A DNA stretch of 64,000 bases, from contig OZ024740.1 of NCBI GenBank assembly GCA_964016885.1, positions 347,572,001 through 347,636,000 of the forward strand, given 5' to 3'. A program made the position numbers and the translations under genes. The stretch comes from Eledone cirrhosa. Taxonomy: Eukaryota. Under the pieces are notes generated by a model. The model made no database searches. It worked only from the letters and a program-made list of their open reading frames with translations, and was not told the DNA's origin. Positions 592 to 27,118 of the stretch are shown one piece after another (within the stretch, counting starts at the first letter, position 1; every line of letters starts with the position of its first letter).

Positions 592-628
592 ATGTCACCA
601 ATCACCGTCTTCTTACTTCTTCTTTCTG
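592..628 (+). CDS. Kazal inhibitor copy 1, first coding exon (signal peptide MSPITVFLLLLS-G)
   Basis: ATG at 592, hydrophobic run, phase-1 donor G|GTATGT at 628/629; phase matches the exon at 4775 (G+GA=Gly) and the joined sequence reads as a continuous signal peptide MSPITVFLLLLSGAVLITA. Confidence 0.8.
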
Positions 629-649
629 GTATGTATATTTTTGTATAGT

Positions 650-833
650 GAATTGCCAGTATCGGTAGAGTGTTGGACGCCACACTTTCTAGCATAGTTA
701 CGTCCCTTTACGTTCTGAGTTTAAATCCCGCCGAGGTTAACTTTGCCTTTCATCCTTACGGGGTCGATAAAATAAAGTACTAGTAATGTACTGGCTAATT
801 GCTGGCTTTGTGCCAACACTAGAAACACTTATT
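650..833 (+). mobile_element. tRNA-derived SINE (octopus-type)
   Basis: A-box-like TGCCAGTATCGG, B-box-like GAGTT(C/T)AAATCCC, body GTTAACTTTGCCTTTCATCC, (ATT)n-type tail; more than 10 copies in the window. Confidence 0.85.
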
Positions 834-1155
834 TCTTTTACGTTACTGCCAACACTGTTGTATCTCAATTTTAGACAATGCTCTTCGTTGATTCTGTCTG
901 AGCCCTAGCGCCCAATGTGTCTTGGCTTGATGTCACTAAACTAAAACCTGACACAATATATTGTTGGTGTTTTCATCATCTCAAATATGCATCCAAAGCA
1001 AAGAATTGATTGTCTTCATTCCTAATGTCCGAATAATTTCAGCAGGTGGGCCAATGTCCTTAATCAGAACCAAATGATCTACACTCGGTCAGATTGATAT
1101 ATATCCAATTTTCTGTGGTTTCTAACTCCCTCCTGTCTCTCTCTCACTCTCTCTC

Positions 1156-1536
1156 TATATATGTATATAAATATATATATATATATATATATATACATAT
1201 ATATAAATATATATATATATATAAATATATATATATATAAATATATATATATAAATATATATATATATATATATATATATATAATATATATATATATATA
1301 TATATATATATATATATATATATATATATATATATATATATATATATATATATATATATATATATATATATAAATATATATATATATACATATATATATA
1401 TATATATATGTATATATATATATATATATATATATATATATATATATATATATATATATATATATATATATATATATAAATATATATATGTATATATATA
1501 TATATATATATATATATATATATATATATATATATA
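1156..1536. repeat. Long (TA)n microsatellite (others at 21895-22091, 39870-40031 and many more)
   Basis: Direct inspection. Confidence 0.95.
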
Positions 1537-2455
1537 CTAGCAGTGGTACCCGGCGTTACACGGGATAAGATATTTTGGAACGCCGGCCGCCAACAGACCT
1601 AATCGGGGAAAAACTTCATGACTAGACAATTTGTAAAGAAAATAAACCGAATACACTGATGGCTGGACAATCTTTAAGATGTTCCTCGATGAAGCAGGAA
1701 AAATGCAGGTTTTCACCTAATGCGGGTCCTAGGGGATCAAGAAAATGAATTTTTTTTATCAGCATAAAATGCCTTGAAATTTCGGGAAAATCGACTAGAA
1801 CGTAACGCCTCAAAAAAGCCCTAAAGATCTGAAAAAATGAAGTTTTTCACCTAATGCGGGCCCTAGGCCATAAAAAGTGGGATTTTCTGTGTTCACTGTA
1901 TGAAGAAGAGACTGCCTAATACATAGTTACAATTTTAAGGAAATCGGTCTGACGTAATGTCTCAAAGCACCCCTAGAAAGCTGAAAAAACGCAGATTTTT
2001 TACCTAATGTGGGCGCTAGGGGATCAAAAAGTAGAATTTGTTTATGTGCACAACACTCCCTCAAACATAAGTAATACACATGTAAAGGTTGAAAAAAGTC
2101 GGTTGGGTACTTCTCGTGTTTTAGGGATTCAAACTCACAGACACAGACACAGACACACACACAGACATCCTCATTGAAGTGACGTAATGCAGACAGCCAG
2201 ACATACAGACAGATATTATAAGGGTGCGACGTTATATGTATGTATCTAAAAAGAGAAAGACTAAGAATCATAGAGAGATCATTAAACCGTCTAATGGGGT
2301 CGCTAGGACATTGAAAATTTGAAATTTGTTTTGCTCAAACACGCCCCGAAACATAAGTATTACATGTGTAAAGTTTGAAAAGAGTTGGTTGGGTGTTTCT
2401 TGAGTTTTAGGGATTCAAACTCACACACACACAGACATCCTCAGTTTCATATATA
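1537..2455 (-). mobile_element. Non-autonomous Helitron
   Basis: Minus-strand 3' end CCCG-loop-CGGG hairpin followed by CTAG|T; internal (CA)n/CAGA microsatellites and subrepeats; homologous copy at 20957-21895. Confidence 0.7.
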
Positions 2456-3829
2456 TATATATATATATATATATATATTGTTAGACTTTGGGAGGATCAT
2501 GTTGCCAATAAGAAACACACGCACCAACAGTTTCACTTCAATTTATTATAATAAATTTATAAATTTAGGAATTTATAAATTTCCGGTTGGTTGGTTGGTT
2601 GGTTTCACAACCAGATGGTTGTGGAACCAACCAACCAACCGGAAATTTATAAATTTATTATAATAAATTGAAGTGAAAGCAACTGGTGCGTGTGTTTCTT
2701 GTTGGCAACATGACCCTCCCAAAGTATAACAATATCGGTTTCAACACATGTTTTCAGGTAAAGAATCTTGCTATATATATATATCATACTGCTAAATACA
2801 TAATTATGAACCACCCATTCATACATATGTTTAAATGGTCATATGGTGTGTGTTCAGATAAGCGGTTTCCTGATACCTGATATTGTGAGTTGGTAATCTT
2901 ACTCATTTTTTCGCAATTTCTTCGTGTATTATTGTTGCTATTATTATTATTGTTGTATTGTAAAAACGTTTAAGAAATTTAAATAAATGGGGTATAAACT
3001 TGTGAAACAACCCTTGAAATACTAGATAGGCTGTCTTTTCTTTTTTTTATTTTTAGAGTTTCATTTGTTTTCTTAGTTTAATATAGTACAGTACATTATT
3101 GTTCGTGAATATTTATGTGTGGGATACGGGATTGTGCCAAGGGCATATGACCGAACGCCTAAGAGATTCACTTCTTATTTCCATGCTTCCATGTTCAGAT
3201 CGGCCTAAGACACTTGAAACTATATAGCCGGTAACTCTATATTGTGGAAGCCCATTGTGTGGATTCTGCTACATAGAGATACGCTTCATCTGTTTGAATA
3301 TTACATTTAGATTATACATAGACACAGAGAATGCTCAGTCGTATGCCCCATTTTACAATGACTACATAATATAGGTAGATATAATTCATTATCATAATGT
3401 AATGGTTATGTTACTATTGTTTAATCATAAGTTAGTCCCATTGAATCAGAACTTCGATCAAAATCATTGCAGCCGTGATCGCCCCATCATTTTGTCCGAC
3501 ACGTAGAGTAATGCCACTATTAATTGTGATGCCACTATTGATTTTGATACCACTGTTGATTGTAACTGAGTCTCGTTTGGGTACTTTTTTAAGCTGTCTC
3601 CGGCTGATACTGATCCACATAACTTTTATGTTGTGGGTCACAGGTGTTGCACGGGTGTGGCTCAAAAATCTTGTAAATTCATGTGGGAATTCTCTAACTT
3701 TATCACATGCTAGTCTTTGCAAAATCTTATTTTGACTGCTTTCAAATATTCTGTCTGACTGGCGAAAATCTTTGTTTATTTTGTTGGAATTTACACTATG
3801 TAAATGTAAACTATTATTTATTATTTAGA

Positions 3830-24890: not shown

Positions 24891-26160
24891 ATATATAAAT
24901 GTAAAATTAACACTAAGGACTCAACTTATTCATATATAGGAGCTACTTCTAACCAATTTAAAGTAAGATTTAATACCCACAAACTCAGTTTAAAAAATGC
25001 CGCATTAGCTAATACAACATCCTTAGCTGAAATAATTAATAATTATAGAAAAAAGAATATCGATTATAACCTGACCTGGAGTATGCTCAAAAGGGCCACC
25101 CCTTATCAAAATAATAGATATGAATGTAGATTATGTTCCCAAGAACTTTTTGAAATAATGAAATCTAAGTATATCCTATTAAATAAGCGACAAGAATTAA
25201 TTATATCATGTAATCATAAAATTAGAAGAACTTTTAAATATTATAAACCTAATTAATATATACTTTACAAATTATTATAACAAATTTTTTTTTTAATTAG
25301 TTAACCTATATTCTACTACTAATGAACTGCATAATTTTATTTCCCTTTTACAGCTATCTTTTCCTAAAATTTATACCAATAAGTATACATATAAACTATT
25401 TTAATTTCAGGTTATGAATCTATATTCCTTGTAATCTATATAAATTTGTTATTTCTCACTAATACATTTATCCCCCCCCCCCCCAAAAAAAAAATTATTA
25501 TTTTTTTTTTTTCTTTTCCCTTCGTTTTTAACAACATTCTTCAATTACATATAACTCTTATTTATCATATCTATATGAATTTATATAGATTTATCAATAT
25601 AAATATACCTATCAATTAAATTCATTTATTTTCTTTTTATAGATGTAAATTCCTTATGTTTTAAATAAGATTGATATTTTTCACTAACACATTTATCGTA
25701 AAATTTTATTCTCCTTAGATTTTAACATTAGCATTATTCTTTTATAACATCAAATTTTCGTGTACTTTTCACTGGCTTGACCTATTTTCATCCCCAAAAT
25801 AATCTTTTCATTCAAAATACTCTTTCCGTTCAAAACTGAAGTCTGCTTCCCTCTACCTCTAAATTAAATTTCTATTACTACTATTCTATCATCTTGACCA
25901 CTTACTACCTTTCTATTGGTCAATTCAAAACCTTTTCCCAAACAAACCTATTATATTAAAACTTTGTTGGTTTTTTTCAATGAACAAATATCATTATTTC
26001 TGAAGACAGCATATATATGTGTAGGTATGTATATTCCCTCTGATAGTTTGTAAAAATTTTACATAGATCTATATGATATACATACCAACACAAACATATA
26101 TATCCTAGAAACGATCGTAAAATGATGAATTTTTTAATATAAGGAACTGTTTCTTTGTTT
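24891..26160 (+). mobile_element. Penelope-like (Naiad-type) 3' fragment: GIY-YIG, 3' UTR and hammerhead
   Basis: IYKCKINTKDSTYSYIGATSNQFKVRF...CRLCSQE...LLNKRQE..SCNH, stop ~25256; hammerhead at 25990-26126. Confidence 0.85.
25990..26126 (+). ncRNA. Type I hammerhead with long stem II
   Basis: ATCATTATTT-CTGAAGA-~100-nt imperfect hairpin-GAAAC-GATC-GTA-AAATGAT. Confidence 0.7.
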
Positions 26161-26359
26161 TTTTCATGATTTTATTAATTTATATATATATATATATATA
26201 TATAATATACATATATACATATATATACTTATATATATATATATATGTATGTATGTATGTATGTATGTATGTATGTATGAATGTATGTATGTATGTATGT
26301 ATGTATGTATGTATGTATGTATGTATGTATGTATGTACGTATGTATGTATATATCAATA

Positions 26360-26851
26360 GGGGGTTGGATGCCATGCTTTCTAGCACAGTTACGTCCCTT
26401 TACAGTCTGAGTTCAAATCCCGCCGAGGTTAACTTTCAATCTAGCTAACTTAGTCATTTACAATACAAACACGGATATGTTGGTATTTGTGTTTATCAAA
26501 TATATTTATTTATATTAACTTGCATATATATATATATATATTACTTTCATTATTGTAATTGCCGAGGTTAACTTTGCCTTTCATCCTTACGGGGTCGATA
26601 AAATAAAGTACCAGTAATACACTGGGTATTTGCTGGCCTTGTGCCTAACGTAGAAACAATTATTTTAATTGCCAGTATCGGTAGAGGGTTGGACGCCATG
26701 CTTTCTAGCACAGTTACGTCCCTTTACAGTCTGAGTTCAAATCCCGCCGAGGTTAACTTTGCCTTTCATCTTTACGGTGTCGATAAAATAAAGTACCAGT
26801 AATGTACTGGGTAATTGCTGGCCTTGTGCCTAAAGTAGAAACAATTATTTT
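26360..26851 (+). mobile_element. SINE cluster (fragment, truncated copy, full copy)
   Basis: Matches to the SINE consensus in intron 2 of Kazal copy 2. Confidence 0.8.
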
Positions 26852-27021
26852 ACTCTCTAATGGTCATGAAAAGTAAATTAATAGTTATTTTTATATTTTT
26901 CAAAAATATTTATTTTGTATGTGTATGTGTGTGTGTTTGTGATCGTTTCTGTGTGCTTTCGTGTGTGTGACCATATGCATGTAATCATGTTACCGTTTGT
27001 TGTTGTTGTTTTTTATTACAG

Positions 27022-27070
27022 CGAGAAACCGGATCTAGTAATCAAACATGATGGTCCTTGCAACATATAA
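27022..27070 (+). CDS. Kazal inhibitor copy 2, exon 3 (FEKPDLVIKHDGPCNI*)
   Basis: TTACAG acceptor, phase 2, KHDGPC motif, TAA 27068-27070. Confidence 0.88.
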
Positions 27071-27112
27071 ACCTGCGAATATCTGTGAATATTTTCGAAA
27101 TAGAGATATATA

Positions 27113-27118
27113 AATAAA
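27113..27118 (+). terminator. Polyadenylation signal of Kazal copy 2
   Basis: AATAAA at the position homologous to 6123. Confidence 0.6.

Follow-up and report, generated by a model that had tools for sequence, protein, structure and literature searches.

A tandem array of single-domain Kazal genes in Eledone cirrhosa with coding exons likely diverged under positive selection and a candidate new disulfide in one copy

How can two exons encoding the same small inhibitor fold, close together in one genome, differ through most of the binding loop when a sampled block of their introns has hardly changed? This question is raised by a stretch of 64,000 nucleotides (nt) from the cephalopod Eledone cirrhosa (assembly GCA_964016885.1, contig OZ024740.1, positions 347,572,001 to 347,636,000; hereafter the window, to which unprefixed coordinates refer), where a model reading the letters alone had noticed a pair of Kazal-type exons, here called gene A and copy B2. 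The coding exons of the array to which they belong likely diverged under positive selection, as judged from the genomic sequence. The reading favoured here, with a probability of roughly 0.65, is that these are single-domain Kazal genes under positive selection as secreted inhibitors, each for a different serine protease.

The sequence-only reading had described a tandem pair. Instead, the window holds a third gene, C3, on the minus strand, and mapping of 424 kb around it revealed an array of 12 Kazal loci in three repeats of about 100-120 kb each, ordered C1-D1-B1, C2-D2-A-B2 and C3-D3-D4-D5-B3. Four gene types (A, B, C and D) are present, the C genes being on the minus strand. The common layout is a single Kazal domain in three exons with phase-1 and phase-2 introns; splicing was deduced from splice sites conserved among copies, and exons were assigned to genes across the array by their order. 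All three exons are present in 10 of the 12 loci, the broken ones being B2, which lacks exon 1, and D2, which lacks exon 2. Exon 2 encodes Kazal Cys1-5 and exon 3 encodes Cys6, within an H-D-G-x-C motif. The six cysteines and the framework C-G-x-D-G-x-T-Y-x-N-x-C are present (with Phe for Tyr in C2), as are a short Cys1-Cys2 spacing and six residues between Cys4 and Cys5. Between Cys2 and Cys3, types A, B and D have the canonical seven residues, whereas the C type has a loop of eight without Pro. The second residue after Cys2 is P1, which steers specificity (PMC13101452), and it is Asp in A, Ala in D, Phe in B and Met or Ile in C. A genome search found 11 copies of exon 2, all at C1:347.42-347.74 Mb (C1 being here the contig, not the gene) and within 310 kb. 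No other Kazal cluster of this type was found outside that interval; the remaining genomic Kazal matches are dispersed or belong to a large multi-domain gene region on contig C6.

The predicted features of gene A and copy B2 are as follows.

592..628, forward strand: gene A exon 1, with the start codon, the first 12 residues of a hydrophobic signal-peptide-like leader and a phase-1 GT donor
4775..4910, forward strand: gene A exon 2, with the end of the leader, Kazal Cys1-Cys5 and P1 Asp at 4834-4836
4840-4842, forward strand: codon of the extra Cys at P2' of gene A, derived from a Tyr codon
6026..6098, forward strand: coding part of gene A exon 3, with Kazal Cys6, the lost stop at 6075-6077 and the stop at 6096-6098
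6123..6145, forward strand: AATAAA polyadenylation-like signals of gene A (at 6123, 6136 and 6140)
23775..23898, forward strand: copy B2 exon 2, with Kazal Cys1-Cys5, P1 Phe at 23822-23824, an open frame and intact splice sites
27022..27070, forward strand: coding part of copy B2 exon 3, with Cys6 and the stop

The three exons of A would give a product of 81 residues, whose leader has a mean hydropathy of 2.66 over residues 5-17; the coding part of its exon 1 is identical in B1, B3 and D4. Exon 2 of A and of B2 are each flanked by an AG acceptor and a GT donor. The Kazal identity first proposed for both exons was borne out by Pfam, where A scored 30.2 and 27.8 bits and B2 36.7 and 37.4 bits against Kazal_1 (PF00050, cut-off 21) and Kazal_2 (PF07648, cut-off 22.8), respectively; C3 scored 21.0 and 29.7. 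The best single-domain match among solved structures was the elastase inhibitor 1y1b (expectation value, E, 4e-6). As to the Kazal fold, with its disulfides 1-5, 2-4 and 3-6, the prediction for exon 2 of A alone was of low confidence (predicted local distance difference test, pLDDT, 59.7; helix at 36-43), and a weak fold search ranked a Kazal protein first at E 1.0. By sequence, the predicted products of types A, B and D are Kazal domains.

From Cys2 to Cys5 (4828-4908 against 23816-23896), 15 of the 27 codons differ between A and B2 and none of the changes is silent; 24 of 81 nt are changed, 11 of 15 in the P2-P3' loop, while the 12 conserved residues use identical codons and P1 is Asp in A and Phe in B2. 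All of these earlier counts were reproduced. Over the 27 codons the nonsynonymous and synonymous divergences (dN and dS, method NG86) are 0.50 and 0.07 (Fisher p 0.008), and D-B pairs give dN of about 0.5 and dS of 0.04 (p 0.005-0.007). Silent divergence of exon 2 among A, B and D lies at dS 0.03-0.15, whereas between these and C the silent sites are near saturation (proportion of synonymous differences, pS, 0.75-0.85, with the C rows off by one codon at the loop), which indicates that the method does detect age. Neutral simulation of the A-B2 pair gave p 0.04-0.05 for the lack of any silent codon and p 0.001-0.003 with the Kazal framework fixed; when 10% double-base hits were allowed, the values were 0.05 and, with the framework held, 0.003.

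The proposal of diversifying selection gained further support from paralogs of the flanking contig, the signal being stronger with more of them. Codon maximum likelihood (ML) was run with custom code on a fixed tree, with naive Bayes site calls, over the eight A, B and D copies of exon 2 (of 11 in all, three being C copies), without the variable-length stretch between Cys1 and Cys2. Model M0 returned a dN/dS ratio (omega) of 14-20, which departs from 1 with p 1e-4 to 6e-4; M2a was preferred over M1a with p 2e-8 to 2e-7 under two frequency models. The flagged sites are P2, P1, P1', P3', P11', P14', P16' and P20'-P23'. The cleanest contrast between exon and flank is that of A with its sisters D4 and D5: from D4 it differs at 29 of 133 exon-2 nt and 4 of 189 flank nt (p 7e-9), from D5 at 27 of 133 and 5 of 189 (p 2e-7), and long non-coding blocks over the surrounding kilobases differ by 3-4%. 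The 7 exon-2 codons that vary within the near-identical D and B copies all alter the amino acid; at P2, the four D copies carry Thr, Pro, Ala and Leu. Seven of the eight enzyme-contact positions in the core vary (contact list from PMC1236909).

Fast change in the reactive loop was confirmed, but it is not confined there: residues P20'-P23' at the end of the helix vary as well, and so does exon 3. The exon-3 coding parts of D1-3 differ by 20-25% from those of D4, D5 and A, their untranslated regions (UTRs) by 3-4%; by this contrast, fast change reaches the last strand of the domain.

Several observations weigh against the favoured reading. Inside the exon alone, A-D pairs are not significant (NG86 p 0.12-0.34; simulation p 0.013-0.28), nor is the difference in variability between contact and non-contact positions (7/8 against 8/15, p 0.12). 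In the ML results the helix end and the loop are flagged with equal strength, a pattern compatible with a second binding face or a different type of target. Silent changes do occur among the C copies, at 2 of 7 variable codons. Moreover, the ML models have no term for recombination or multi-base mutations, and the eight copies amount effectively to three lineages.

Under the favoured reading, each peptide would be secreted and would bind its protease by the standard mechanism of Kazal inhibitors; the proteases that drive the selection would be foreign to the animal, from microbes, parasites or prey. Kazal inhibitors have twelve enzyme-contact positions, ten of them hypervariable (PMC1236909). 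Ala at P1 is associated with elastase- and subtilisin-type inhibition and a bulky hydrophobic P1 with that of chymotrypsin (PMC8131977); for an acidic P1, subtilisin inhibition is on record with Glu (PMC13101452). A search for a linked target protease placed one of the 138 trypsin-family matches listed on contig C1, 70 Mb away (150 of 211 candidates scored). No RNA match was listed for positions 4600-6300, a result with no bearing on expression.

It is possible, though unlikely, that these are salivary or venom peptides acting perhaps on prey ion channels or receptors, with protease inhibition secondary, as in the conkazals of cone snails. The fast sites outside the enzyme-contact set (helix end P20'-P23' and exon 3), the conserved leader ahead of a hypervariable mature part and the cephalopod host would all suit such a role, as would the phase-1/phase-2 intron layout and the theme of a fourth disulfide, both found in conkazals and schistosomins (PMC13101452). 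Nevertheless, 11 of the 24 changes fall in the P2-P3' loop, within 15 of 81 nt, and the array peptides do not show the cysteine pattern of conkazals. Furthermore, a literature search on octopus, posterior salivary gland and Kazal together listed no paper on such a peptide.

Rapid change is typical of reproductive proteins, and this counts for another role, the inhibition of sperm, seminal or egg-coat proteases with divergence through sexual conflict or gamete recognition. Small secreted Kazal peptides do act in vertebrate sperm maturation (PMC8873584). However, nothing in this analysis points to expression in gonad or duct, and the divergence lies among paralogs of one genome, across three P1 classes, which makes a reproductive role quite improbable.

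The apparent conservation of the introns depends on where they are sampled. One feature matters here.

3432..3735: block of intron 1 sampled earlier, homogenised among the A, D and B types and near the likely crossover zone of hybrid copies

Against 23108-23411, this block differs at 11 of 304 nt, so the earlier count held; as a representative clock, the block failed. Directly beside exon 2, the introns of A and B2 differ at 14 of 98 and 16 of 95 nt, compared with 44 of 1019 in a far intron block (p 1e-7 against the exon-2 flanks). Across 3466-3800, the group means stay at or below 3.8% among all groups. Gene conversion between old paralogs, which the sequence-only reading had named as what could undo its case, was found in part, for the sampled block: D and B differ there by 2.5%, against 13-16% beside exon 2. 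The excess of exon over intron change in the A-B2 pair remained (24/81 against 30/193 flank nt, p 0.007), its size being about twofold with the exon-2 flanks and not eightfold. Homogenisation of the sampled block thus reduces the exon-intron contrast, but it does not account for how little the synonymous sites of the exon have diverged. Introns are poor clocks in clusters of this kind, the block sampled first having understated the age of the A-B2 pair about fourfold.

The idea that there is no positive selection at all, the exons being old paralogs or patches from old donors with introns rejuvenated by conversion, is very improbable and largely refuted: conversion and crossover are real here (a homogenised block, exon 1 identical across types) and the A-B exon-2 flanks are four times more diverged than the sampled block, but the silent sites of exon 2 look no older than the flanks (dS 0.03-0.15) when the old C paralogs approach saturation, all 12 conserved residues keep identical codons, and an omega far above 1 was obtained without any intron.

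The pattern along the genes suggests how the copies arose. An old duplication would have produced the B and D types, and unequal crossover in intron 1 would then have produced the hybrids A, D4 and D5, which combine the promoter and exon 1 of the B type with an exon 2 of the D type, while conversion would keep part of intron 1 alike among copies. In the exon-1 region, A, D4 and D5 are 0-1% from the B types and 9-10% from D1-3; in the exon-2 flanks, they are 0-4% from D1 and D3 and 13-17% from B. Three insertion-distorted comparisons were left unused (intron 2800-3460 for B, the end of intron 2 for D4 and D5, and the promoter within B). Most simply, A, D4 and D5 are likely recombinant, with the 5' half of B type and the 3' half of D type, and their place in the array, between a D and a B copy, is the one that such a crossover predicts. 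In exon 2, D4 and D1 have two variants in common, as do D5 and D3, although one member of each pair is a hybrid and the other is not; this is a sign of continuing conversion of exon 2.

Among these hybrids, A carries a change of another kind. Its predicted precursor has cysteines at positions 27, 31, 35, 39, 50, 57, 73 and 80, eight in all and thus an even number. Cys35 stands at P2'; in each of the seven B and D sisters this position carries a Tyr codon, which differs by a single base. Of 523 Kazal domains sampled, 254 have Tyr at P2' and one has Cys; they come from 94 of 150 database proteins, all of them multi-domain, so that the sample is biased. In D4 and D5 the stop falls two codons after Cys6; the same codon is Gly in A (6075-6077), and the frame continues for 7 codons into what is 3' UTR in the sisters before the next stop. 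The codon of the new tail cysteine, Cys80, lies at 6090-6092. At 6072-6095, A differs from D4 and D5 at 8 of 24 nt (p 2e-6 against 3.9%), in comparison to 2 of 46 in the coding part before it and 4 of 77 in the UTR behind. By eye, exon 3 of D1 and of the B copies sides with D4 and D5 over this segment, so the tail changes arose on the A line. The old UTR contained a Cys codon in frame, which reads Phe in A; two codons further along, a former Tyr codon now encodes Cys.

Loss of the stop codon in A would thus have given a tail whose cysteine would pair with the new one at P2'. Because there are eight cysteines, two derived Tyr-to-Cys changes and a fast-changing new tail, a fourth disulfide between Cys35 and Cys80 is likely. 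In Kazal structures, Cys6 ends near the strand after the binding loop, and a tail of seven residues could reach P2'. The odds are about even that A represents a new disulfide at its birth, at about 3-4% neutral divergence from its sisters, with the tail stapled to the protease-binding loop. If so, it would be a four-disulfide Kazal type with a bridge position for which the searches made here showed no precedent, independent of greglin and the conkazals, and its near-identical three-disulfide sisters would be ready controls. No report of a P2' disulfide, or of a cephalopod Kazal array under selection, was found in the open-access literature searched. In public DNA contigs from three runs, representing at most one sample, D-type and B-type pieces of exon 2 are present; none of the pieces listed has the A letters at 4941 or 4971 or covers the A core, which does not imply that A is absent.

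The second member of the original pair did not hold up as a whole gene, as B2 has no exon 1, start codon or leader of its own and is therefore likely a pseudogene. The break can be placed precisely.

17258..17263: junction of a 1.33-kb deletion in copy B2 that removed exon 1 and its surroundings

Exon 1 occurs only once in the whole window, and the homology between A and B2 ends at 505/17258. Over 14722-17258, B2 matches B1 as far as G000:C1:347471521, and the match is taken up again at 347472854, with 97-98% identity on both sides of the clean 1.33-kb gap that contains exon 1. Exon 2 of B2 is 3 of 124 nt from that of B1 and 1 of 124 from that of B3; since its B-type changes are common to these intact sisters, the divergence from A, and the likely selection, predate the loss of exon 1. 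AATAAA signals stand behind its exon 3 at 27113, 27126 and 27130. On the minus strand at 17263-18600, in intron 1 of the B types, lie retroelement fragments with open reading frame (ORF) pieces, which we take to be a GIY-YIG endonuclease and a reverse transcriptase of the Penelope-like kind.

The third gene of the window is an older paralog, its synonymous sites being near saturation against A, B and D.

60729..60864, minus strand: gene C3 exon 2
57947..58007, minus strand: coding part of gene C3 exon 3, with Cys6 and the stop

Its exon 1 lies outside the window, at G000:C1:347643673. Intron 1 of C3 contains a retroelement-like insertion (61165-62800) with a 578-codon ORF on the plus strand and a 151-bp inverted repeat (61165-61315 and 62011-62161, 99%). 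In exon 3 of C2 (G000:C1:347513765, minus strand), the conserved His is replaced by Arg and Pro by Gln, and the exon-2 framework has Thr and Phe changes; from these replacements, C2 may be decaying. Copy D2, upstream of the window (G000:C1:347527509-347563165), keeps exons 1 and 3 around a long, insertion-rich intron region from which exon 2 is absent. D3 has two copies of exon 3, at G000:C1:347668399 and 347672474, the first broken off within the UTR and adjoining a 1111-codon retroelement-like ORF. A repeat of about 185 bp, resembling a short interspersed element, recurs in many copies, several within Kazal introns (648-834, 3833-4019, 4266-4376, 5764-5866, 10653-10838, 26352-26850, 29358-29534, 34207-34393, 36307-36510 and 48845-49023). 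An inverted pair of CAT/ATG trinucleotide-rich arms occupies 4041-4629, in intron 1 of A just before exon 2.

Two further candidates were rejected. Hypermutation of the mature region would raise the silent sites of exon 2, which are not raised. An assembly artefact does not fit three repeats that are 93-98% identical yet carry different insertions, and errors would not spare silent sites.

Elsewhere in the genome, about 75 kb beyond the array (G000:C1:347811859, minus strand), a 380-codon open frame with a G-Y-G pore-like motif is presumably an exon of a two-pore potassium channel. The molluscan haemocyanin beta-sandwich family has 39 genomic matches, with three sets of copies on contig C1 (173.7-173.9 Mb), an inverted pair on C26 (21.9-22.0 Mb) and divergent units on C27. 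Against 4yd9_C, 1js8_A and the last unit of 6r83, which we take to be squid and octopus haemocyanins, one unit reaches about 500 bits; its score against 3j32, presumably that of abalone, is 385.

Rapid change of Kazal contact residues is already known, so the selection signal alone would be a strong new example and not a surprise; what is new is the recently acquired pair of cysteines. With ten complete copies separated by neutral distances of 1-17%, evolutionary steps can be ordered: hybrids by crossover, switching of P1 among Ala, Phe and Asp, four P2 residues in near-identical copies and a likely UTR-derived disulfide. The gain of bridges in the cysteine frameworks of toxins and defence peptides, where a single new cysteine should be harmful, could here be tested with four constructs.

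In protein databases, no relative of 22-77 residues was found, whether the query was the alignment or exon 2 of D5. The longer matches (120 listed of 418) comprised multi-domain Kazal proteins, agrins and ovoinhibitors, with no close single-domain relative among those listed, and the best 150 of 9508 representatives were all multi-domain; matches in the Atlas, at 0.81-0.82, were generic Kazal. In the alignment used as query, the B rows have their first cysteines misplaced, and the sensitivity of these searches may have suffered.

Among known systems, the array peptides resemble the non-classical invertebrate Kazal inhibitors (MEROPS I1; 1y1b and snail CmPI-II) in their single domain and six-cysteine framework, with a short Cys1-Cys2 stretch, seven residues between Cys2 and Cys3 and six between Cys4 and Cys5. 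Unlike that set, they form a predicted 12-locus array with Asp, Ala or Phe at P1, two extra cysteines in A and a C type with an eight-residue loop that lacks Pro. As in the avian ovomucoid third domains studied by Laskowski, the contact residues are hypervariable while the Cys at P3 and the Asn at P15' are fixed (PMC1236909). There, however, the variation is among species at one gene, whereas here it is among young paralogs of one genome with introns as the clock, and non-contact helix residues of the array change too.

A layout of phase-1 and phase-2 introns may be common to many Kazal genes. The array shares it with the conkazal group, in which the phase-1 intron follows the leader and the phase-2 intron falls between Kazal Cys5 and Cys6 (PMC13101452). 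Conkazals (the MKAVA conotoxins), molluscan schistosomins and the locust greglin also have a fourth disulfide tying an extended C-terminus to the Kazal core, as predicted for A, and an acidic P1 is common to conkazal (Glu) and A (Asp) (PMC13101452). Differences are nonetheless marked. The extra bridge of conkazal-M1 (Cys37-Cys68) starts three residues before Kazal Cys4, whereas the extra Cys of A is at P2' in the binding loop; the eight cysteines of conkazals and schistosomins are conserved across molluscs, whereas the extra pair of A appears newly gained; and the authors report no strong positive selection on conkazals, in contrast to the likely selection here (PMC13101452). The extra pair before Cys4 and at the C-terminus is missing from A as well as from the B, C and D types, which have six or seven cysteines. 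Glu at P1 with Pro after Cys1 is likewise missing, the residue after Cys1 being Glu, Gly or Arg in A, D and C. By their predicted sequences, the array peptides are thus not conkazals or schistosomins.

In its mode of evolution, the array recalls those of snake venom and small serum proteins, with tandem genes, a Ka/Ks (nonsynonymous to synonymous ratio) above 1 between young paralogs whose introns are 5-6% apart, transposon-laden introns and pseudogene remnants (PMC6609765). It differs from them in protein family and phylum, in a higher omega and in the likely formation of hybrid copies by crossover (PMC6609765).

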